The notes under the pieces were generated by a model. It searched no databases. It saw only the letters and a list, made by a program, of their open reading frames with translations, and had not been told where the DNA came from. Positions 1,520-64,000 of a DNA stretch of 64,000 bases are shown in pieces. Numbering within the stretch: the stretch's first letter is position 1; each line of letters starts with the position of its first letter. The stretch is from Escherichia phage vB_EcoM_Lh1B, in the sequence record OK428535.1; one strand, written 5' to 3'. Both the position numbers and the translations under genes were made by a program.

Positions 1520-2832
1520 TGTCGTTTGGTCGGTTACAACAGATGGCGAACGGTCACATCGCTAATGCTCGGGGGTTACCGGCTATCGACTACGGGATAT
1601 TCCTCACGGTACACGGTGCCCCAGTGACGGTGTTGAAGATGCTGTCTATCATTCACACCGGTCACTTTACGCGTGATATCTGTTTGTTGACACATCTCAC
1701 CCTGGCTATACCCTACAGCCACATGCGAATGATCACATCGTCCGCAGAAGGGGATTTGAAGGTAAAGCTGTTACTGCGTCGTGGACAGAAAATCGCGGGG
1801 GTCTTTAACTACCGCGGCATCGTGATAAATAACCGCGACCACAACGCGGAATCACCGACGATGTTCTTGAGTCAGTCTGATGAGAAATCTATCGCATTGG
1901 TAACATTGGAGCTGATGGATGAGTCGATGTGGTTCCTGCGTAATCGTCAAGTGGGCGGCATCTACCACGAAACAGATGGGTTAACAGTGGCTCGCTCGAT
2001 ATTGGCGGATACGTTGCCGGAAGGGGTGGCTGCAGAGGGGCAGTTGAAAGGGATTGAATATGATGAAGAAGAACAGCAGGCATATCGGGACATTGTCATA
2101 CCCGACTCCGAAGACTTCTTAAGCGTGTTTGATTATCTGCAGAACCATTACGGTGTTTACAGCAAAGGTATTGGAGTCTTCCAATACCTACAACGCTGGT
2201 ATCTGTATCGACCTTGGGACTCGTTGAAGTTTAATAACACAACTAAGCCTAAACTGGTCATCTATAATCTGCCTCGTGAACAGGCTGCTCACATTGACCG
2301 CACCACTGATATCGCGGGTAATGTTATCTATCTGATTTGTGGCGGCGACACCAGTAGTTTGGAATACCGTGACCAGGCCGCGCTTAACCAGGGTACGGGT
2401 TACCGGGTAGGGTCTGTACGTGTGTTGGATGGGCGTAGTAGTTCATTTACGCCTGGCGACATCAGTATGACCACACCTGATAAATTTGTGGCACAGGCCG
2501 ACCCTGCTGCGTATCCAGGTGGTGTGGTTAACGCACCAATCGATCCTGATAAGCACTTTAGCGATACCGATAAACCACAGCGGTCTAAACTGGAGATGAG
2601 TCTGGGTACGATTGTGCAAACAACCTGGAACCGTTCAACGCACGGCATCCTATATCCCGGTATGCCGGTAAAATACGTTTTTGCCAACGAGTATGGGGTC
2701 TATACCCGCTACGGCACGTTGGTGGGTGAAGTGTTCCAGTCTGCTGTCGACGGTCAAACGATGGCATCAGGACGCTATAACACCCAATCACAACTGAGTC
2801 TTTGGCTCAAAGATGAAAAATTTACAGCTTAG
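1519..2832 (+). CDS. hypothetical protein (437 aa)
   Basis: Long ORF; ATG overlaps upstream stop (TAATG), operon-like coupling. Confidence 0.6.
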   Translation: MSFGRLQQMANGHIANARGLPAIDYGIFLTVHGAPVTVLKMLSIIHTGHFTRDICLLTHLTLAIPYSHMRMITSSAEGDLKVKLLLRRGQKIAGVFNYRGIVINNRDHNAESPTMFLSQSDEKSIALVTLELMDESMWFLRNRQVGGIYHETDGLTVARSILADTLPEGVAAEGQLKGIEYDEEEQQAYRDIVIPDSEDFLSVFDYLQNHYGVYSKGIGVFQYLQRWYLYRPWDSLKFNNTTKPKLVIYNLPREQAAHIDRTTDIAGNVIYLICGGDTSSLEYRDQAALNQGTGYRVGSVRVLDGRSSSFTPGDISMTTPDKFVAQADPAAYPGGVVNAPIDPDKHFSDTDKPQRSKLEMSLGTIVQTTWNRSTHGILYPGMPVKYVFANEYGVYTRYGTLVGEVFQSAVDGQTMASGRYNTQSQLSLWLKDEKFTA

Positions 2833-2875
2833 TCATCTAGTATGACCCGTAAGTAACCTTAAGGAAAATATTGCA

Positions 2876-3673
2876 ATGAAAGCGATTCACACCTTTCGCA
2901 TGACCGGCCAAACTGTTCTCGACATTGATGCGTACGAAGCCGCTAACTTCACCAAACCGACCAAGCTCTGGGATCGCCTGGTTAAGGTACTGCCGCAAAG
3001 CGGTGAGGTGCAGTTGGATTTTGTCATGGCATCGACGTTGGATAAGACAGTGGCAGTTATTTATACTGCTGACGGTGTGCAGAGTAAGAAGGACCTGGCA
3101 ATCGAAGATAAAGGCGGGCTGGGTTATCACTTGTTCCTGCACTGCGTAACCACTGCACCGATTTCAGCTGCGCTGGCGGGACAGTACGGTTTCGCGAATG
3201 CGTATTTCCTGGCACAGAAACTCGCCGTGAATGTTATTCCGGGTGACGTGACCACTTACCCTGAATACGTACAGCGTATCCTGCCAGAGCACTTCGCTGC
3301 AGACGACTACGATTTCAACGTGTTCCGTTTCGCATTGATCGGCGAATCGCGCGATCCAGAATACACCGTTGGCTTGCGTGCCTGTCTGCGTCACTCCGTT
3401 ATCTCTTCGGATGAAGGGATGTCGAATAACGTGAACGAAGTGTTCCCGATGATGCAAGTCGGTCCGTATATCACTTTCAACTCGTACATTCCGTTCCCGG
3501 CACAGATTCTGCCGCCGCAGAACGATAACAGTGNACNGCCAATCGCCGACAAGTATTCACTGCGTGCGAGCGAAGCAGTCGAAGTGATTAACGATCGTCG
3601 CTTTACATTGTCAGTGACCAGCGGCATCAGTGAACCGGAAGTTGCGGTCTCTCAGAGCCTGGATTTGATGTAA
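2876..3673 (+). CDS. hypothetical protein (265 aa), codon-biased, probably well expressed
   Basis: RBS AAGGAAAA upstream of ATG; optimal-codon bias leaves antisense shadow ORFs; terminator immediately downstream. Confidence 0.65.
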   Translation: MKAIHTFRMTGQTVLDIDAYEAANFTKPTKLWDRLVKVLPQSGEVQLDFVMASTLDKTVAVIYTADGVQSKKDLAIEDKGGLGYHLFLHCVTTAPISAALAGQYGFANAYFLAQKLAVNVIPGDVTTYPEYVQRILPEHFAADDYDFNVFRFALIGESRDPEYTVGLRACLRHSVISSDEGMSNNVNEVFPMMQVGPYITFNSYIPFPAQILPPQNDNSXXPIADKYSLRASEAVEVINDRRFTLSVTSGISEPEVAVSQSLDLM

Positions 3674-3681
3674 AAGTGTGC

Positions 3682-3715
3682 CTGGTCTCCTTGTGAGACC
3701 AGGTCTCTTTATTTT
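3682..3715 (+). terminator. rho-independent terminator
   Basis: Hairpin CTGGTCTC-loop-GAGACCAG followed by T-rich run. Confidence 0.6.
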
Positions 3716-3839
3716 AGCCCTCTAAACGCACTCACAACCTTCTAAAGCCTCTCTAACGGTAGAACGACCCTCTAAAGTGATAAAAGCTCTCAAAACGCGT
3801 TTGAGAGCGTTATAGAGGGTGTACTCTGAATAAAAATAA

Positions 3840-3870
3840 TTTCAGATATATATTACCTAGGTGATAGAAG
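3840..3870 (+). promoter_or_regulatory. early-promoter-like element, copy A (TTTCAGATATATATTACCTAGGTGA)
   Basis: Near-identical copies at 32872 and 52662; contains TATATTAC; lies about 45 nt upstream of an ATG. Confidence 0.5.
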
Positions 3871-3915
3871 ACAATCTATCAACTCAATCGACTATTAATC
3901 TAAAGGAGTATTACC

Positions 3916-4059
3916 ATGTTAACTCGTAACCATAAACGTGCCATCTTCGCCATCGTTGCTGTTGTTGCTTTCGCGGTACTGTCTATCACTGTAACTCAAG
4001 ATTACAACAAGTGCATCGATAACGGTAACTCTGTTGCCATGTGTACAGGTCGCGGCTAA
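3916..4059 (+). CDS. small membrane protein (47 aa)
   Basis: Preceded by conserved leader and RBS AAGGAG; hydrophobic helix (AIFAIVAVVAFAVL). Confidence 0.45.
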   Translation: MLTRNHKRAIFAIVAVVAFAVLSITVTQDYNKCIDNGNSVAMCTGRG

Positions 4060-4241
4060 TGGACTTTTCTGATACGCAGTTTGCCGAGTTCTTATCTCAC
4101 CCGCGTGTTAAACGTGAGTGGGATAATCTCACTAACGGTGTTCGTCATCAGGACGAAGAAGAAATTGTTCACGTTACCGCGCAAGTCTTACTCGTCTCAC
4201 CGACAGGTAATGTGTTTCCAATGCAGCAGGAGATTTACTAA
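4059..4241 (+). CDS. hypothetical protein (60 aa)
   Basis: ATG overlaps upstream stop (TAATG); in frame with ORF-track entry 4041-4241. Confidence 0.4.
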   Translation: MDFSDTQFAEFLSHPRVKREWDNLTNGVRHQDEEEIVHVTAQVLLVSPTGNVFPMQQEIY

Positions 4242-4429
4242 TGGGTGTTTTAGTTAATTACGATGGTAAAAACGGAATNGTGCTTCGCGGCGTGGNAGAN
4301 AACTTATATGTAGNGGTGAATCCANAAACCNCAGAACGAACNTTTATNGTGGGGCCNAAAAGCGCTTTACCNAAGCCGGANTGGAAAGAAGAGNTGGNGA
4401 AGTTCCGTGGGGAANTNGGGAACAATTAG
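4241..4429 (+). CDS. hypothetical protein (62 aa; N-rich)
   Basis: ATG overlaps upstream stop; many ambiguous bases. Confidence 0.3.
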   Translation: MGVLVNYDGKNGXVLRGVXXNLYVXVNPXTXERXFXVGXKSALXKPXWKEEXXKFRGEXGNN

Positions 4430-4442
4430 TATAGATAATTTA

Positions 4443-4470
4443 ATACCACCTACGGGTGGTATTATTTTTT
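4443..4470 (+). terminator. rho-independent terminator
   Basis: ATACCACC-TACG-GGTGGTAT hairpin followed by TTTTTT. Confidence 0.6.
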
Positions 4471-4481
4471 GCCTAAGGAAC

Positions 4482-4904
4482 ATGAAAATGATTAATGAGA
4501 AGCTCCAAAAGTATTTAAAGAATGACACTGACTGGATGGTTCTTGACCAGTACGGACGATTTGTTCCGCTATCCAAGGATTCCCCTATACCCCGTGACAA
4601 GGCGATTTATATTCCTGACGGTAAGGGTGGCTATCGTTTCTGGGAAGGCCAGGAAGTAAAAGAGGAAATGTTCTACATGGAGCCGAAGTTCCGTGCAGCG
4701 TTCCCATCGAAAAATATTAACGGCTATGTTTACAACGCAATCCCGCCAATTACGCATCCTAACTTTGAGGTTGTGAACTACCCCGCAACTGTTCTGGATT
4801 GGCAACGTGCCATTAGTGAACACTACACGATTCCGCTTGAAGGTGTTTACTTCCCATTCCGTGATATTAGTTTGGACGACTTTATTAACTCTCTTAAGGA
4901 CTAA
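4482..4904 (+). CDS. hypothetical protein (140 aa)
   Basis: RBS AAGGAA upstream of in-frame ATG; 3' part of ORF-track entry 4407-4904. Confidence 0.55.
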   Translation: MKMINEKLQKYLKNDTDWMVLDQYGRFVPLSKDSPIPRDKAIYIPDGKGGYRFWEGQEVKEEMFYMEPKFRAAFPSKNINGYVYNAIPPITHPNFEVVNYPATVLDWQRAISEHYTIPLEGVYFPFRDISLDDFINSLKD

Positions 4905-4908
4905 AAAA

Positions 4909-5769
4909 ATGTACAGTATTACAGATTTCATCAAAAATGCGGATTTCCTCCTACCTTCCGACCACGAAGTATTGGCTAGCGATCCGTTAACCGATGCGGC
5001 CATTGTCCAGCTGGACCGCGACAAACGTCGTACTTATGTCGTGTTGGTCGAAGGGCAGAGCTACGGCCTGTCTTCTTACGACCTGGAGCAGCAAGAGCGT
5101 TTCCTCGATGAAAACCGCAAAACGTCAATGTATAGCGCTATCTCGCGCGCGTTGTGCAAGGTAATGGCGACGATCACAGACAGCAAAAAACGCATTGCCG
5201 TGCTACAGGGTATCAATGCGNTAACGACCAAAATCCAACAACTTGAAGGTTTCCATTGCCCACGATTGGAAGCCGCACAGAAGGATGCTAAGGGCGATGA
5301 GGCCATGGCACTGTTTGAAGGCAATACTGTCTTTGCAACAGCTGAAGCTTGTTATCTCACCTATCCAACTTTTAACTATACGCCAATCAGCGACACCGTA
5401 GACGGGATTAAAGTAGAGAACGTCGTGCAATGGGGTCGTGCAAATCTCAAGTTTGTGATGTCCCATGAAGAAGAAAATCAAGACGGACTTGGACAGAAGA
5501 TTCAACGTTGGTTCACGGCGCGTTTGGACGCCAACTGGGAAGCGCATGTTAACGCAGAGCTTCGTAAATTTCACGCGGTAGTCGCATTGTTAAAAGAAGA
5601 CACACCTGCCCAGAAACAATCGAAGGCACCCGTGGTTGGCNGGNNGNGNTCCGGNTGNAACCNCAACCANGTCNCTACAGTACCGAGAACTCATCGCTAC
5701 ACTTCGCAGACGATGAACATTGCTTGCCCGGCTTGCGGTAAGATCAACGAAGTTGATTATAAACCGTAG
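4909..5769 (+). CDS. hypothetical protein (286 aa) with C-terminal CPACG motif
   Basis: ATG 5 nt after upstream stop; terminator directly downstream. Confidence 0.6.
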   Translation: MYSITDFIKNADFLLPSDHEVLASDPLTDAAIVQLDRDKRRTYVVLVEGQSYGLSSYDLEQQERFLDENRKTSMYSAISRALCKVMATITDSKKRIAVLQGINAXTTKIQQLEGFHCPRLEAAQKDAKGDEAMALFEGNTVFATAEACYLTYPTFNYTPISDTVDGIKVENVVQWGRANLKFVMSHEEENQDGLGQKIQRWFTARLDANWEAHVNAELRKFHAVVALLKEDTPAQKQSKAPVVGXXXSXXNXNXVXTVPRTHRYTSQTMNIACPACGKINEVDYKP

Positions 5770-6175: not shown

Positions 6176-7738
6176 TTAGAACAAATCATCACCCATTCCA
6201 CCGGTGAAGAAGTTGATAGACGACGCTGTTACGGTTTCTTCTTTATCACAATCCCAAGGCAGGATGCCAACATCCTGGAAAGGTATCACTGTGTAGTGAT
6301 AAGATTCTTTAGTATCGATAATGGTGCGGTGTTTACCGCGTTGAACTTCTAAGAAGCTATGGCCGTTGACCACACGCTTGTTAAAATACATTTCACCATC
6401 GGCCTCGTTATCAAGGCTCGAACAACTATCGTAAAGACCACGACCAGGTAAGTTCTTACAGAAGCCTACCGGGTCTAACGCTTTTAAGCGTTTACCTTCT
6501 GGGGAAATCTGGTGTGGGGCAATTAAGAACCCACGGTTGCGTACCACTTGGATGTTACGAGCAATACGATAAATTTCTTTGATATCACTCCCGGCAATGC
6601 CGTTGCCGTGTCCTGCTTTGCTGATTGTGCCTAAGTAGTCTGCGCGAATGCCAACAACATGATAACCGCGACGACGTAAGTCGAGAATAAGGTCGTTGAT
6701 GTAGTGCACTTTAAAATCGGAGTTGGTGTGCTTTTGGAAAACGTAGTCCCAACCGTTTGCGCGAATCTTACCACAGAGGTAATCAGACATTGCTGTTGTG
6801 TGTGCTAACTTCTCTTCAGCGGTTGCATCCTGTGCAATGGTCATCTGTGGAACTTGTCCTTCAAAATGACCGTACAGTGCTTGATAGCCGTAAGCTAAGT
6901 TAACGTCGAGTTCGTTTTCTAAACTCAAGTCAAGAATAATTGGTTGCAGTGTGCCCTTCACATCCGCCATTATTTTCTCAGGCGTGTTGAAGATAGGAAT
7001 CGACAAGCTCAGTAAGAGACTGAACAAAGACTTACAGTTAAAAGGCAACGCCGGCATAAGCCACAGTTCTTCGGTAATCCCTTTGTTACAACCGAGCATT
7101 TGGTTAATGGCTTTCCAGCCCGTCTGCAAACCATTACCTGCTGCTTTCTTGTTAATCGAGTCGAACACTTTAACAAACGGAGCCCGATTATCTGTAACCA
7201 GCTCACCGACCAGTGATGGAATCTTATTATGAGAGCGTTCACCGAACGTAGATAGCGCCTCTTTGAGTTCGAGCACTGCGGTGTTCAGATCAACACGTGT
7301 CTCAGTTCCATTCAATGCTCCGAACGCGCGACCCATTTTTGTTTTGAGTTCGACGCTCTGTAAACATTGACGTAATTGGAAATAATATTGAGACAGTTGT
7401 CGATTAAGATGCTCGGTACGTTTGTCTTCTTCCTCGGGCAAATCGTCTTCGAGGAATTTGGTAATCGTATCGTATAGAGGACGTACTTGAGTGGTGGCCA
7501 GCTTCAAGCGCTTCATAACGCTCGCGTGGTCGTATTCCATGCCGCCGTCTATGATAGATGTGATAATGTCCTTGATCTCGATGAGTGCAAAGCGCTCTTC
7601 GCCATCTTCCGCATATTCCGGAAGCTTGATCTGCATCAGAACTTTTCTTATGACATCATGATCCTTGCTAGGGTCCGTCAGCATAGATTCTGTATACAGT
7701 GCGGCTAAGGCGGTTATCAACATCATTTTACTATTCAT
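6176..7738 (-). CDS. hypothetical protein (520 aa), minus strand
   Basis: 1.5-kb ORF unlikely by chance; AAGGA RBS on the minus strand; hydrophobic N-terminus. Confidence 0.6.
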   Translation of the reverse strand: MNSKMMLITALAALYTESMLTDPSKDHDVIRKVLMQIKLPEYAEDGEERFALIEIKDIITSIIDGGMEYDHASVMKRLKLATTQVRPLYDTITKFLEDDLPEEEDKRTEHLNRQLSQYYFQLRQCLQSVELKTKMGRAFGALNGTETRVDLNTAVLELKEALSTFGERSHNKIPSLVGELVTDNRAPFVKVFDSINKKAAGNGLQTGWKAINQMLGCNKGITEELWLMPALPFNCKSLFSLLLSLSIPIFNTPEKIMADVKGTLQPIILDLSLENELDVNLAYGYQALYGHFEGQVPQMTIAQDATAEEKLAHTTAMSDYLCGKIRANGWDYVFQKHTNSDFKVHYINDLILDLRRRGYHVVGIRADYLGTISKAGHGNGIAGSDIKEIYRIARNIQVVRNRGFLIAPHQISPEGKRLKALDPVGFCKNLPGRGLYDSCSSLDNEADGEMYFNKRVVNGHSFLEVQRGKHRTIIDTKESYHYTVIPFQDVGILPWDCDKEETVTASSINFFTGGMGDDLF

Positions 7739-8289: not shown

Positions 8290-10590
8290 ATGAAAGATAC
8301 CCGTATCGCTAGTCTGGACCAGCTGGTTCAGCAGGGCAATGCTCTGGTCGCTGCTGCCAAGGCAGGCTCTTCCGCTAATGACGTATGGCNNNCCGTNGCC
8401 NTTGTCGCCTCTNTACNTNAAAATGCTGCCGGCTTCACCAACCTGCGTGACACTGCTCAGCAGCACTACGAAGCTGTAAACCCTGGCAAAACCATGAGCC
8501 ACGCTGCCCAGGTTGCTTCTGCGATGATTCTGGCTGCTGCCGGTCACGAAGACGACTTCATGACCCGTGTTGCTGCCGAGAGCGCGAAGCCGGAATACGC
8601 CAGCTATATGCCGATCGCTATTTCTGGTGCAGCATCTCTGGCTGCTGACTACGGTAAAACTCCGCTGGTCGCAACCGAATACTACACCAACAAAGACCTG
8701 GACAAAAACCTGGGTCTGACCTGGACGCTGAACGTGCGTGCTCTGGAAACTCAATCCAAGTTTGCAGAAACCCTGTTCCCGACCATCACTGTGGACACCA
8801 ACGACGTCGGCATCACCGTTCGTACCAAAGTTACTACTGTAACTCGTGGTATCCTGAACGCCCTGCTGACCAAAGACGTGGTTGAAGACAACCGTCAGCC
8901 GCTGCATAACGCGCTGTCTAACCACAAAGTCCTGCAGGACGATGCTATCCGTATCGTACCTTACGTGATGGAAACCGGTGAGAACGCGAAGTTCTTCGTA
9001 TCCGAAGACATCATCGAAAACGAAAACGTTCAGCTGGGTCGTGTGCCGGCGTATCCGACCAACTACCTGNGCTTCTCTGAGCGTCGTCTGAACCTGTTCC
9101 AGCTGTCTGCCCATCCGGGTATCGTGCAGGAAGGTTACGATGAAACCGACGAAATCGCACCGGGTGCAGCGCTGGGNAGCCTGCTGCTGTCTGTGCGTAA
9201 GCCGACCGAAGAAGCGAAAGATGGCGCGCTGATCAAACTGAACGTACGCGACATGCAGTTCGCTACCTTCCAGCGTCCTCCTGAAGGCGATGGCCGTGAG
9301 CTGGTCCTGCAGTTCCGTCGCACTGTGTTCTCCCTGAACGCCAAGTCTCTGGACTGGAAAGGTGCTGAAATCCCGGCACTGGCCGCTCTGGCACAGAACG
9401 ATTACACCATTCGTTATTCCATGAACATCAGCATGTCTCTGTTCACCAACGGTCAGTTCTCTGGTCGTGTTGACGTGACTGCACCGTCTCTGGAAATCGA
9501 AGGTCTGTACGATGCAACTGGTACTGCTGTTGATATCGAAAGCGGCACCGGCAAAGTCATCATCGACAACCTGAAACTGGAGCTGCTGGGCTGGCGCTTC
9601 GACGGTACTCGTACCAACGAGAACCGGAGAACCCAGGGCCTTCTGCTCGACCCGATTTGGGAACAAGAGAACTACAAACTGCAGTACGGTTCTCCGATCA
9701 TGACCAAATCTCCGGTTGGCGTTGAATACGACGACACCGAACGTCTGGACGACCTCGTTTCTGCGGTTAACATCCGTAACGAAATGCTGGCTATCACTCA
9801 GACTCTGTCTTACACCGAAGCGGTTAAGAACGCAGCTGCGTCCATGATCACTCCGTGGGACAAACCTGCTATCCGCGGCCTGGGCCGTCACTGGGTTGCT
9901 CCGTGGTACAGCGAAAGCGACTACGAAGTGGACAAAGTGATCCAGTCTCTGGATACCAAAGATGCGCTCATCAACGCCCGTCAGGGTCTGGTACAGCGTA
10001 TCGGCGACCAGGTAACTCGTGCTATCCAGGATTCTCGTTTCATGCCGGCTCTGCGCCTGCTGACTGCGGACCCGAACGCACTGCCGAAAGTTGTTATCGC
10101 AACTGACGAACCGACTGCTGCAATGCTGCTGCTGGTTCAGGGTGACCAGCGTCTGCTGGGCGATCGCTACGAGTACGAAGTTATCACCACCAACGATGAC
10201 CGCTGGCGTGTGAAGAACGAAGCTGACGGCAGCTGGACTCGCCGCCTGCAGTGGGTTCTGAAAGTTCCAACCGCTGATGACGGTTCTTACTGTGTTCTGA
10301 ACTGGGGTAACCACTTCTGGTCTCCGATCATGGTAACCAACATCAACATCCAGCGTAACGGCGCTACCAGCAAAGAGCTGGCAGTACAGCCTCGTAACGC
10401 GCACATCTGCCACTGCCCGATCACTGGTCTGATCTGGATTAAAGGTATCACCAAGTTCGTGGAAGAGAAACTGGCGTTCAACGTCACTACTACTTCCAAC
10501 GGTACTGGCGGTACTAATGGCGGTAATGCGGGTGATGTTGGCGGCGGCGCTACCCAGCCAGGGACGGGNGGTGATGGCGCTGGCGGCTAA
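8290..10590 (+). CDS. putative major capsid protein (766 aa), highly expressed structural protein
   Basis: Very strong optimal-codon bias leaving a 715-aa antisense shadow ORF; size fits the ~750-aa capsid proteins of phiKZ-like phages; product call from context only. Confidence 0.45.
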   Translation: MKDTRIASLDQLVQQGNALVAAAKAGSSANDVWXXXAXVASXXXNAAGFTNLRDTAQQHYEAVNPGKTMSHAAQVASAMILAAAGHEDDFMTRVAAESAKPEYASYMPIAISGAASLAADYGKTPLVATEYYTNKDLDKNLGLTWTLNVRALETQSKFAETLFPTITVDTNDVGITVRTKVTTVTRGILNALLTKDVVEDNRQPLHNALSNHKVLQDDAIRIVPYVMETGENAKFFVSEDIIENENVQLGRVPAYPTNYLXFSERRLNLFQLSAHPGIVQEGYDETDEIAPGAALXSLLLSVRKPTEEAKDGALIKLNVRDMQFATFQRPPEGDGRELVLQFRRTVFSLNAKSLDWKGAEIPALAALAQNDYTIRYSMNISMSLFTNGQFSGRVDVTAPSLEIEGLYDATGTAVDIESGTGKVIIDNLKLELLGWRFDGTRTNENRRTQGLLLDPIWEQENYKLQYGSPIMTKSPVGVEYDDTERLDDLVSAVNIRNEMLAITQTLSYTEAVKNAAASMITPWDKPAIRGLGRHWVAPWYSESDYEVDKVIQSLDTKDALINARQGLVQRIGDQVTRAIQDSRFMPALRLLTADPNALPKVVIATDEPTAAMLLLVQGDQRLLGDRYEYEVITTNDDRWRVKNEADGSWTRRLQWVLKVPTADDGSYCVLNWGNHFWSPIMVTNINIQRNGATSKELAVQPRNAHICHCPITGLIWIKGITKFVEEKLAFNVTTTSNGTGGTNGGNAGDVGGGATQPGTXGDGAGG

Positions 10591-32828: not shown

Positions 32829-32871
32829 CAGATCAGAACAGTCCTATGCTTTTTGCTTCCAGTCCACTAAA

Positions 32872-32902
32872 TTTCAGATATATATTACTTAGGTGAGAGT
32901 TG
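32872..32902 (+). promoter_or_regulatory. early-promoter-like element, copy B
   Basis: TTTCAGATATATATTACTTAGGTGA plus conserved leader into the RBS. Confidence 0.5.
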
Positions 32903-32947
32903 CTCGTAAACTCTCTAATCGACTATTAATCTAAAAGGAGTATTCTA

Positions 32948-33313
32948 ATGCGTTTTAAACATCAAACCGTTGTGTTGGCAAAGAAAGCATTTCTGGTTCG
33001 TCTCTCTTACATTATTNCTCGTGTCACTGCGAAGGATGTTACGCAGAAAGACATTGCATTGTTGGTAGGCNGNTNNCCNNCACAAANNTNTGNGNTTAAA
33101 AATGAACGCGAGAAAGCCGTGACTATCGAAACTCTGATGCGTGTTGCCGATACACTGCGCCTGAATTACGAAATCGTTTACCGTTCCATCAACGGCAAAT
33201 GCCGCCATAGCTTCAAAATTGAATCCTGCATCGACTACATGAATAACTGTCCTATCCGGGTACGAGAAACAGGACTTAAAGTCATGGCACGTAAACCTTC
33301 TGCAGTGATGTAG
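32948..33313 (+). CDS. XRE-family helix-turn-helix transcriptional regulator
   Basis: VTQKDIALLVG ... TIETLMRVADTLRLNYEIV fits the Cro/C1-type HTH pattern; N-containing. Confidence 0.5.
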   Translation: MRFKHQTVVLAKKAFLVRLSYIIXRVTAKDVTQKDIALLVGXXXXQXXXXKNEREKAVTIETLMRVADTLRLNYEIVYRSINGKCRHSFKIESCIDYMNNCPIRVRETGLKVMARKPSAVM

Positions 33314-33324
33314 GGAGCAAACGT

Positions 33325-33711
33325 ATGAATTGGTATGTGAGCGGTATCACCCGTCGTGTAATGACGGAAGAGGATGATCGATGTAAACATCTTAAAGTGG
33401 GGTCTATAGCTCCACGTTATACGGCAGAGTGCGACCCATGGGGCCGCGAAACGTATTACATGTGCGAGAACTGCTGGGAAAAANTGCNGGNNNAAATNGN
33501 NGNTGAAGAAGTGGTNTGCGNCGATTGCAAAGGTACCTTCCCGAAACGGGATACTGTTGNGNGGAAATGGCACGACTTTGACCCCAGTCAAGGGGATAAA
33601 GAACTTTGTATCTGTAATAACTGCGTGTCTTTACCGACACATTTAAACCGTGTAGAGAATGACCGTCGGGCATTTGAACACGACTTTCCAGAAGCAGCTT
33701 TCTGGGATTAA
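33325..33711 (+). CDS. Cys-rich putative zinc-binding protein (128 aa)
   Basis: Several CxxC-like pairs (CENCW, CxDC, CICNNC); Ns present. Confidence 0.45.
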   Translation: MNWYVSGITRRVMTEEDDRCKHLKVGSIAPRYTAECDPWGRETYYMCENCWEKXXXXXXXEEVXCXDCKGTFPKRDTVXXKWHDFDPSQGDKELCICNNCVSLPTHLNRVENDRRAFEHDFPEAAFWD

Positions 33712-52642: not shown

Positions 52643-52661
52643 CTAGTGTGATTACAATTAT

Positions 52662-52692
52662 TTTCAGATATATATTACTTAGGTGAGAGTTA
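52662..52692 (+). promoter_or_regulatory. early-promoter-like element, copy C
   Basis: TTTCAGATATATATTACTTAGGTGA plus conserved leader into the RBS. Confidence 0.5.
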
Positions 52693-52738
52693 ACCATTAA
52701 CTCTTATCTAATCGACCATTATCTTAAGGAGTTTTAAC

Positions 52739-53185
52739 ATGTACATTCTGAATAACGAACTTACTAAGTACGCTAGCAAAAACCCGANTATGATTTNTTT
52801 NCTAATCGTGATGGCGGCCAACAAACAAGACCCTAGCGAATTCACTACTGAGGTCTTCGAAGAGATTATCGCTAACGCCAAAGAAGCCACGTTCCAGACC
52901 ACAGNGCCTACTCGCGACGAGTTCCCCCTAGGTGAAGCCGGCGATGTAATGTTTAACGACATGGTTGCTTCGTACTACATCAATAGACGTGGTATGGAAA
53001 TCGAATACGATGAACTTCCTACTAGCAGCTTTGCTGAAATGATTCGTGATTATCGTCGTCAAGTTGTCTCTGACGATATCGTAAAGAAATACATGGCACA
53101 AATCAGCCCATTCAGTCTTGAATTCGAAAACCGCGCGGTTGCCTTAGCAACACATCGCCTGCGTTTAGAAAAAGAAGTACACTAA
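52739..53185 (+). CDS. hypothetical protein (148 aa)
   Basis: Driven by conserved leader and AAGGAG RBS. Confidence 0.55.
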   Translation: MYILNNELTKYASKNPXMIXXLIVMAANKQDPSEFTTEVFEEIIANAKEATFQTTXPTRDEFPLGEAGDVMFNDMVASYYINRRGMEIEYDELPTSSFAEMIRDYRRQVVSDDIVKKYMAQISPFSLEFENRAVALATHRLRLEKEVH

Positions 53186-63137: not shown

Positions 63138-64000
63138 ATGGGGTTGTATACAGAACCTTCAATGGAACTGCTCTGCCAACAAATTGTGCGTGACAATCCC
63201 GGTTTAGCAGGAAAAATCACCGCTGACTCCATTGGGGTCAGGGGNGTTCCTGTTGCGAAAAACGTTAACGGACGAAACACACAGATTACGTTGGTAGGAA
63301 AACCCGGTAAAGGATTTGCTGGGGAAATAACGGTATATTACGACCGGTTGAATCTGGCCAGTCTATTTAAGTCTGGCCCAAATATGGTGAGTATTCCACG
63401 TAGCGNACAAACCCATGCGGAAGNGTTACCGGCGTTCAATGAATTGAACGGGTTNAACTTAACCGCGAGTGATATCACCAGTCCAAACGTTGCATTAATG
63501 AAATACGCTACGCCGGAAACTGTAACTCTGACGGCGCACGCTAACTCCTTGTGTTATACCGGGTCATGCAAGATGACCTATGTTTACGAACCGATTGCGA
63601 TGTATCCGAAGTCGGGTCCTGGGCCAAAAGGATTAATGGCTGGTAATGAGTTATACGGATTCTTTGGGCTGGTAAGCGCGGAAGAGTTATTCACATCTGA
63701 TGAAATGGTGTATGCCCTCTATAACGGCACCACCTGGCCTAACCGCTACGCTATCAAGTGGCTCAAATTCTTTCTGAATGGGGNGGTAGTGTTTGTTCCG
63801 ACCCGTGCGNTTTGCAACGTTACCTGGGCAGACCTGTACAACAAGGGTGCAATATTTGATTCCGGAGACGCAGGACCTCGCCCGAAGTCGACTTACACAC
63901 CTGTCGATGTTGAACAGTTGAAATACATGGTAAAACGGGATGATGAAGGAACGCATTATTTCAGAATGTCTATCCCGTATTACACCGAGAACGCCGCCGC
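63138..64000 (+). CDS. tandem-array paralogue P11 (partial, runs off window end): N-terminal module plus GPGPK-motif domain
   Basis: IVRDNPGL...GRNT...YYDRLNLASLF then YPKSGPGPKGLMAGN...GFFG; no stop within window. Confidence 0.65.
   Translation, partial: MGLYTEPSMELLCQQIVRDNPGLAGKITADSIGVRXVPVAKNVNGRNTQITLVGKPGKGFAGEITVYYDRLNLASLFKSGPNMVSIPRSXQTHAEXLPAFNELNGXNLTASDITSPNVALMKYATPETVTLTAHANSLCYTGSCKMTYVYEPIAMYPKSGPGPKGLMAGNELYGFFGLVSAEELFTSDEMVYALYNGTTWPNRYAIKWLKFFLNGXVVFVPTRAXCNVTWADLYNKGAIFDSGDAGPRPKSTYTPVDVEQLKYMVKRDDEGTHYFRMSIPYYTENAA

Follow-up and report, generated by a model that had tools for sequence, protein, structure and literature searches.

A repeat cluster ahead of a putative early promoter in an SPN3US-like jumbo phage contains a noncoding module that recurs in unrelated mobile elements

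The window analyzed here is a 64,000-nucleotide stretch of the genome of Escherichia phage vB_EcoM_Lh1B (OK428535.1). Positions 2800 to 5200 of the window are 96 to 98% identical to the SPN3US-like Salmonella jumbo phages (Seoulvirus, about 240 kb), and identity with these relatives reaches 99.8% across the segment from 3560 to 4060. Within that segment, a 242-bp spacer separates the homologue of SPN3US gp201 (2876 to 3673), a hypothetical protein with no Pfam match, from a 47-codon ORF on the plus strand that is homologous to gp200 (3916 to 4059). A gene for a DnaB-like helicase lies on the opposite strand 2.3 kb downstream of the spacer (6176 to 7738). The upstream gene, gp201, ends in an intrinsic terminator on the plus strand (3680 to 3716), in which a 10-bp stem is followed by CTCTTTATTTT; the terminator scan, the inverted repeat, and the sequence all supported the hairpin and T-run that an earlier, sequence-only reading of this DNA had placed upstream of the repeats. 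Ambiguous bases (n) are present at 3534 and 3537 and at many positions in 32948 to 33711 of the window; they break several ORF translations, including that of a helix-turn-helix (HTH) protein at 32948, and the SPN3US reference copy is preferable to the window for protein work.

A promoter, copy A (TTTCAGATATATATTACCTAGGTGATAG, 3839 to 3866, plus strand), lies in the downstream part of the spacer and contains the octamer TATATTAC at 3849 to 3856, the phiKZ early-promoter consensus. A conserved 5′ leader with a Shine-Dalgarno sequence (AATCGACTATTAATCTAAAGGAGT, 3867 to 3915, plus strand) connects the promoter to the 47-amino-acid ORF. The promoter box, TTTCAGATATATATTACYTAGGTGAG, is found three times in the window (copy A and copies B and C at 32881 and 52671) and six times in SPN3US, with small genes downstream of each copy and the conserved leader present in most. 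Such jumbo phages have a conserved AT-rich motif, about 10 nucleotides long, upstream of early operons, and their virion RNA polymerase uses this motif (PMC7598289). We define copy A as a putative phiKZ-type virion-RNA-polymerase early promoter.

The three promoter copies of the window belong to cassettes (3839 to 3915, 32871 to 32947, and 52661 to 52740) that have in common a leader motif, AATCGAC(T/C)ATTA(A)TCT(A)AAGGAG, immediately upstream of the start codon, and a hairpin terminator precedes each promoter. Such repeated terminator-promoter-leader cassettes could be recombination points. A 27-nucleotide tandem duplication of the promoter core GATATATATTACCTAGGTGATAGAAGA in Salmonella phage SPFM2 (locus L008, 585 to 640, equivalent to window 3843 to 3870) has produced two tandem boxes. 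A fourth TATATTAC octamer in the window (63334 to 63341) probably matches by chance, as the rest of the promoter box is missing and the SPN3US equivalent (125083) falls within a gene annotated as a virion structural gene.

Between the terminator and the promoter lies a cluster of short repeats. Four units were identified on the plus strand, namely, CCCTCTAAACG (3718 to 3728), CCTTCTAAAGC (3738 to 3748), CTCTCTAACGG (3749 to 3759), and CCCTCTAAAGT (3768 to 3778, unit 4), together with a fifth, GCTCTCAAAACG, at 3786 and with two minus-strand units, GCTCTCAAACG and CCCTCTATAACG, at 3797 to 3820, which read on the plus strand as GCGTTTGAGAG and GCGTTATAGAGGGT. The sequence-only reading had described four direct copies of C(C/T)TCTAA(A/C)G; all four were recovered when up to one mismatch was allowed, and exact matches were limited to those at 3739 and 3769. 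The inverted copy that it had reported near 3811 was located at 3811 to 3821 (TATAGAGGGTG), and its palindrome was present with an extent of 3786 to 3808. The units are 10 to 12 bp long, and their cores (3720, 3740, 3751, 3770, and 3787) roughly track the helical repeat, with spacings of 20, 11, 19, and 17 bp in the distal part, the part nearer the terminator, and of 10 to 11 bp in the promoter-proximal part.

The cluster could have been a product of chance or base composition, with the repeat found at similar density in coding regions, but clustering simulations and genome-wide counts ruled this out. Exact C(C/T)TCTAA(A/C)G matches numbered 5 in the window, against 1.5 expected. With up to one mismatch there were 60 matches on both strands of the window, and elsewhere never more than two fell within 60 nucleotides; the four plus-strand copies here lie within 51 nucleotides, a pattern that was chosen post hoc and was reached in 0 of 300 Markov-1 simulations. 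Moreover, the only cluster of at least three CTCTAA hexamers in the 240-kb SPN3US genome was the one at this locus, and all four genomic occurrences of the 9-mer CCCTCTAAA in SPN3US were intergenic.

The repeats fall into two parts that differ in orientation. The conserved proximal part (3783 to 3823, plus strand) consists of an A-run, a first unit that has diverged here into GCTCTCAAAAC, and the units GCGTTTGAGA (3797 to 3806) and GCGTTATAGAGGGT (3807 to 3820). We refer to the proximal part as the module. The distal array (3717 to 3782, plus strand) consists of four degenerate units in the CTCTAAACG orientation, each the reverse complement of the GCGTTNNAGAG units of the module. In addition, unit 4 pairs with the last proximal unit (3767 to 3774 with 3813 to 3820), and an imperfect extended hairpin is possible over 3764 to 3822 (z = −3.1). 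The anatomy of the 105-bp feature is composite, and the feature very probably represents one copy of a widespread module plus decaying inverted copies of it. On the simplest history, part of the module was duplicated in inverted orientation within the SPN3US lineage, and the resulting left two thirds (3717 to 3782) have decayed since. The left and right parts together form an imperfect long inverted repeat centered at 3797/3798.

The palindrome, GCTCTCAAAACGCGTTTGAGAGC (3786 to 3808), marks the junction of the oppositely oriented units and is imperfect, with a 9-bp stem, a 5-nucleotide loop, and arms that differ by one T. Read on the minus strand it is terminator-like, as TTTTAT comes next, and the terminator scan called 3808 to 3786 on that strand as a 9-bp stem followed by TTTTAT. 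One explanation for the locus is a bidirectional stop, in which the minus-strand palindrome and T-run combine with the plus-strand gp201 terminator to separate the structural-gene and early operons, the repeats being incidental to the hairpin arms. The extended hairpin is in keeping with a bidirectional stop, as is a second module copy near 137.5 kb of SPN3US that also abuts a bidirectional terminator between convergent genes. However, the palindrome is confined to the SPN3US clade and weaker in MET_P1_082_240 (substitutions at 3787/3788), the T-run is short, and relatives retain the units without the hairpin. We consider a bidirectional stop of this kind improbable as the explanation of the locus.

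To compare the parts of the spacer, variation was scored in an alignment of seven Seoulvirus genomes (window 3260 to 4360), with third codon positions of gp201 (20 of 137 variable, 14.6%) and of gp200 (8 of 47 variable) as near-neutral references. The distal array varied at 13 of 66 columns (19.7%; P = 0.42 versus third codon positions), and within it the repeat cores (9 of 44) were no different from the spacers (4 of 22). Purifying selection on the four distal copies was not detected among these seven close relatives, and the distal units drift neutrally. The proximal part varied at 4 of 41 columns, which was statistically indistinguishable from neutral over the same alignment, and the promoter and leader were conserved (3824 to 3915; 3 of 92 columns variable; P = 0.006 versus third positions). 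Consistent with a lineage-specific origin, the distal array was poorly kept in pEa_SNUABM_29 and SPAsTU and absent in ChrisDB, where the rest of the spacer had no recognizable distal units.

The module is deeply conserved beyond the genus. It was found at the syntenic site in Machinavirus (ChrisDB, pEa9, and Caitlin), in Erskinevirus (Asesino), and in a jumbo phage contig from IMG/VR (UViG L013), which retains the module even though its flanking gp201 homologue is just 48% identical in protein sequence; GCGCTTAGAGAGCGTCTGAGAGCGTTATAGAGGGT and CGCTTAGAACGCGTTACAGCGCGTTTGAGAGCGTTTTTAGGGGG are typical of these copies. The gap between the module and the promoter octamer is 28 nucleotides in the window, 27 nucleotides in the IMG/VR contig, and 36 nucleotides in four Erwinia phages. 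Strict helical phasing with the promoter is not supported, as gaps of 27 to 28 and 36 nucleotides are not a clean helical turn apart. The sequence-only reading had noted that the array is missing from promoter copies B and C, which was correct for both, and in SPN3US neither the array nor the module was present upstream of the other consensus early promoters (absent at five of six). Because other consensus copies do without it, the module is dispensable for early promoter function.

The relationship between module and promoter is interrupted in three relatives. An Nlig-Ia ORF (PF22745) of 131 to 137 codons, encoding a stand-alone NAD-binding ligase N-terminal domain, separates the module from the promoter in two Seoulvirus genomes, pEa_SNUABM_29 and SPAsTU, and in the Machinavirus pEa_SNUABM_6 (1765 to 2160, 1754 to 2158, and 393 to 806 of loci L010, L011, and L015). 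No such ORF occurs at this junction in the SPN3US clade or in ChrisDB, pEa9, Caitlin, Asesino, or the IMG/VR contig. Where the ORF is present, the last unit of the module (GGAGG or GAGGA) lies 7 to 8 nucleotides before the ATG and serves as its Shine-Dalgarno sequence. We conclude that module and promoter are not an obligate unit, because the Nlig-Ia ORF intervenes in three relatives. The presence or absence of an ORF at exactly this junction is reminiscent of the promoter-early stem-loops (PeSLs) of T4-like phages, in which, as here, repeated cassettes of stem-loop, early promoter, and conserved leader border small early genes and may help genes to be gained and lost. PeSLs nevertheless lack a module of tandem 10-bp units, and the present module reaches well beyond one phage family.

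The same observations could indicate that the module is a relic, the former leader and ribosome-binding region of an Nlig-Ia gene that was deleted in the SPN3US lineage, with no present function. Homologous ORFs stand exactly at the junction in the three relatives, with the module end as their Shine-Dalgarno sequence, and the 3′ end of the ORF (TTGATTAAAAA...TTTCAGATA) matches the sequence after the module in genomes that lack the ORF; neutral drift of the distal units is also what a relic would predict. On the other hand, the module has been kept in at least five ORF-less lineages in which neutral spacer is no longer alignable, unrelated elements carry it without any Nlig-Ia gene, and the second SPN3US copy precedes a terminator rather than a gene. 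A relic is therefore rather unlikely to account for the module.

To determine how far the module extends beyond this junction, copies were compared across phages and plasmids. The family consists of three or four tandem 10- to 11-bp units of type GCGTTNNAGAG that end in AGAGGGT, span about 35 to 40 bp, and are noncoding, with the consensus AAAA-CGCTTAGAG-GCGTTACAGA-GCGTTTTAGAGGGT. The window copy has the unit order of the family (TTAGA, TTACAG, and TTTTAGAGG) and its invariant GCG..AG.GCGT. An nhmmer search with a module model that includes the window copy itself returned 3779 to 3825 as the sole match in the window (E = 6e-10), and, independently of the model, blastn-short matched AGAGCGTTATAGAGGGT to SPN3US 137563 to 137579 at 16 of 17 bases. 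When 17 diverse copies were aligned, the GCG, AG, and GCGT columns were invariant with a 10-bp period, and neither consensus secondary structure nor covariation was seen in the alignment. Searches of Rfam at five module loci gave no match at any copy with E values up to 1, and literature searches with the unit sequences as strings returned nothing relevant.

The second SPN3US copy (137542 to 137581) lies between convergent genes and adjoins a bidirectional terminator. The surrounding sequence, between gp108 and gp107 (NC_027402.1, 137520 to 137625; 37520 to 37625 of locus L005), reads on the minus strand as a terminator, then CCCTCTAAAACGCTCTGTAACGCTCTCTAAAAGCG, and then, about 25 nucleotides on, a lone TATATTAC octamer without the rest of the box, a layout that mirrors the window locus. 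Weaker units occur in a 1.7-kb noncoding gap at the conventional ends of the SPN3US genome. The gap (239882 to 240413 plus 1 to 1186) holds an internally symmetric block of about 110 nucleotides of almost pure A/T, with GC-rich inverted repeats (CGCGCGCCCGCACGCG and its partner) on either side, and oppositely oriented module-like units at 240020 to 240075 and 240163 to 240197. The gap is a candidate origin or packaging region, and no GC-skew signal was found there.

Outside the jumbo phages, a noncoding stretch of the T5-like phage SuperGirl that adjoins DnaA boxes has 32 of 34 bases in common with the second SPN3US copy. T5 itself (AY587007) has weaker copies at 9266 to 9298, just left of the DnaA-box cluster in repeat region 3, and at the repeats annotated as "inverted repeat B" and B′. 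The T5 repeats match the module in unit sequence (GCGTCAGAAAGCGTTTTAGG and CGCGTTAGAATGCGATCTAGGACGTTTTAGG) and in their tandem 10- to 11-bp layout; both are noncoding, lie close to terminators and promoters, and exceed the neighboring ORFs in conservation. The T5 repeat regions have been described as more conserved than the ORFs around them, with their function unexplained (Davison, bioRxiv 10.1101/866236). The settings differ in that the module of T5-like phages abuts DnaA-box clusters and is in the terminal repeat, whereas the window copy has no DnaA boxes and adjoins a promoter for a phage polymerase.

A 45-mer consensus of the module matched several hundred phage records, mainly of T5-like phages (of Escherichia, Salmonella, Klebsiella, Pectobacterium, and Vibrio), of which the weakest are probably noise, as well as 1,241 plasmids and 1,236 of 5,426 E. 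coli genomes, in which most matches were plasmid-borne. The IncX1 plasmid pDKX1-TEM-52 carries two direct copies about 190 bp apart between the 22-bp iterons of ori-gamma and stbDE, and the copies adjoin a lone iteron-like sequence and a sequence like the primosome assembly site of ColE1. The order in that plasmid (locus L021, 2290 to 2770) is the primosome-site-like sequence, the two module copies, and the single iteron-like ATCTCACCT, which may be the alpha origin; the first of these, TTCCGCTTCCTCGCTCACT.ACTCGCT.CGCTCGGTCGTTCGGCTGCGGCGAGCGGT between ori-gamma and stbDE, is similar to the primosome-assembly-site region of ColE1/pBR322. Further copies were found in long noncoding stretches of an integrated element of E. 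coli and of an N15-like linear plasmid. The E. coli stretch (chromosome of CFSAN061772; locus L020, 2967 to 4577) is a 1.6-kb unannotated part of an element integrated beside cmoA/yecN, with a boxA-like GCTCTTTAACGA about 60 nucleotides upstream of the module and a TGCTCTGTAACGCC unit downstream. Among IMG/VR phages, copies follow a P-like helicase-loader gene, lie between repressor and integrase genes, or stand directly upstream of a sigma-70-type promoter that drives an HNH endonuclease; no annotated relative was found for the lambdoid context. All copies examined were intergenic and on mobile elements of Enterobacterales or Vibrio, and module orientation relative to the nearest promoters varied between elements. 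Matches in small MobV plasmids fell inside the relaxase coding sequence and were treated as spurious.

The module was rare in host chromosomes, which would not be expected of a motif that defines a host regulon. Only 6 of 185,579 species genomes had the exact pattern of two units, and the matches in E. coli were on plasmids or integrated elements rather than at core loci. A host regulon motif was ruled out by this rarity and by the mobile-element location in E. coli, and we conclude that the motif belongs to mobile elements. The carriers were also compared for proteins, and tblastx found none common to the IncX1 plasmid, SPN3US, and T5, the last represented by its terminal repeat region. A shared binder encoded by the elements was rejected on the basis of that three-way comparison.

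These results bear on the proposal of the sequence-only reading that the array is a cluster of sites for a phage regulator. One candidate regulator is the XRE-type HTH protein at 32948, which would bind the repeats as operators and switch early promoter A on or off. Consistent with an operator array, the cluster is nonrandom, roughly helical in its spacing, intergenic, and directly upstream of the early promoter; its proximal units are conserved across genera, the repeats occur at copy A only, and the HTH gene is itself behind early promoter B. The distal copies are unconstrained, however, an ORF parts the module from the promoter in three relatives, and the module is not specific to this phage, as it is also carried by plasmids and by T5-like phages, for which no proteins in common with SPN3US were detected. 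The HTH protein is an unlikely ligand for the last of these reasons, because the module is found in elements that share no detectable proteins with SPN3US. Moreover, XRE-type HTH dimers normally bind palindromes and not 10-bp direct repeats, which counts against an operator array. We conclude that the observation of a clustered array was partly confirmed and that its interpretation as operators read by a phage regulator is supported only in part; as the explanation of the locus, such an operator array is unlikely.

The array had also been called iteron-like, a likeness that does not hold in the plasmid sense. The locus and plasmid iterons (those of the R6K, RK2, F, and P1 origins) both present clustered direct repeats in noncoding DNA beside an AT-rich stretch, and TGAGAG or TGAGGG in some units resembles the TGAGnG core of many iterons. 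Plasmid iterons, however, are 17 to 22 bp long, spaced by about 22 bp, and accompanied by an adjacent Rep gene and DnaA boxes, none of which describes the window locus: the units are 10 to 11 bp long, no initiator gene is nearby, no DnaA box was visible in the sequence read, and the neighbors are a Pfam-less hypothetical protein and tiny early ORFs. In the IncX1 plasmid, the true 22-bp iterons form a separate array about 450 bp from the modules. A replication origin has nonetheless some features in its favor, as the repeats adjoin an AT-rich segment (3829 to 3856) 2.3 kb from the DnaB-like helicase gene and, in other elements, the module is near the IncX ori-gamma and a putative ori-alpha, near the DnaA-box clusters of T5, and downstream of a lambdoid P-like gene. 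Against these, the AT-rich stretch is none other than the early promoter, further copies of which have no repeats beside them, the distal units are unconstrained, and the GC skew that was inspected for an origin signal follows gene orientation only. A G4-type primase initiation signal was rejected separately, as the module model found nothing at the G4 origin (3880 to 4025) and there are no conserved hairpins. That the cluster is an origin is very unlikely.

An effect on RNA was also considered. The C-rich, G-poor units of the CTCTAAACG strand resemble the boxA consensus of rrn operons and lambda (CGCUCUUUAAC versus CGCUCUGUAAC), and they might recruit NusB/NusE or Rho on transcripts that read through the terminator; the boxA-like GCTCTTTAACGA that adjoins the module in the E. 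coli element would fit such a role. However, the units follow a terminator and precede a promoter, several elements would transcribe the opposite orientation, and no RNA structure is conserved. A boxA/Nus site proper (GCUCUUUAACAA-like, in a transcribed leader) was rejected, as the likeness is partial, the position is between terminator and promoter, and the orientation is inconsistent across elements. In addition, phiKZ-like phages use their own polymerases for transcription (PMC7598289), which counts against recruitment of Nus factors or Rho. An RNA-level element is highly improbable.

The invariant columns point instead to recognition of the DNA itself. Because these columns recur with a 10-bp period and neither structure nor covariation is conserved, we infer that the module is read as duplex DNA by an oligomer on one face. 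Short cores once per turn, here GCGT and AG, upstream of or overlapping promoter regions are also the architecture of direct-repeat activator sites with a 10- to 11-bp period, such as the boxes of the OmpR/PhoB family and the TTGC-N6-TTGC of lambda CII, and, like those sites, the module architecture suits head-to-tail oligomers. To our knowledge, no established consensus fits the module well, and none of those compared with it by eye, namely, those for Fis, IHF, LexA, DeoR, ArcA, OmpR, CpxR, PhoP, the P1 C1 operator, Tus/Ter, and KorB, fits convincingly. A common ligand, if there is one, is more likely to be a host protein than a phage regulator, because no proteins were detected in common among the carrier elements compared.

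We propose, with a probability of roughly 40%, that the module is a binding site for a protein, probably a host factor, that shapes or insulates the junction of terminator and promoter. The module would act as double-stranded DNA, with GCG and AG contacts at each helical turn on one face, and the putative ligand would be an oligomeric DNA-binding protein. Bound about 30 to 80 bp upstream of the promoter octamer, the protein would most likely have an architectural or modulatory effect that shapes or insulates the region between the terminator and the early promoter. Protein binding, the host origin of the ligand, and the effect on promoter A are all deduced from sequence comparison, and a selfish or neutral sequence that spreads horizontally could give the same appearance of conservation. 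Literature on SPN3US promoters, on the T5 injection stop signal, and on single-strand initiation signals provided context and no function for the module.

A broader reading is also possible, though doubtful. The module may be an undescribed cis element of mobile DNA, kept because it recruits a single host protein of Enterobacterales and Vibrio, or titrates it, and the protein itself would be important when foreign DNA becomes established. The carriers would then be T5-like phages, IncX plasmids, jumbo phages, and both N15-like plasmid prophages and lambdoid prophages, the protein could act, for example, in early transcription or priming or in protecting the incoming DNA, and 3783 to 3823 of the window would be the jumbo-phage instance. 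For the phage locus, the significance of the repeats is small, because other copies of the early promoter have no array and the greater part of the array drifts. Of more use is that a specific noncoding module of 35 to 40 bp is common to mobile elements that have no genes in common and that it falls on repeats of the T5 first-step-transfer DNA that were annotated long ago and are unexplained. Should a single host protein read the module, the module would provide a handle on the T5 repeat regions, on IncX replication or establishment, and on whether jumbo-phage DNA makes contact with host proteins.
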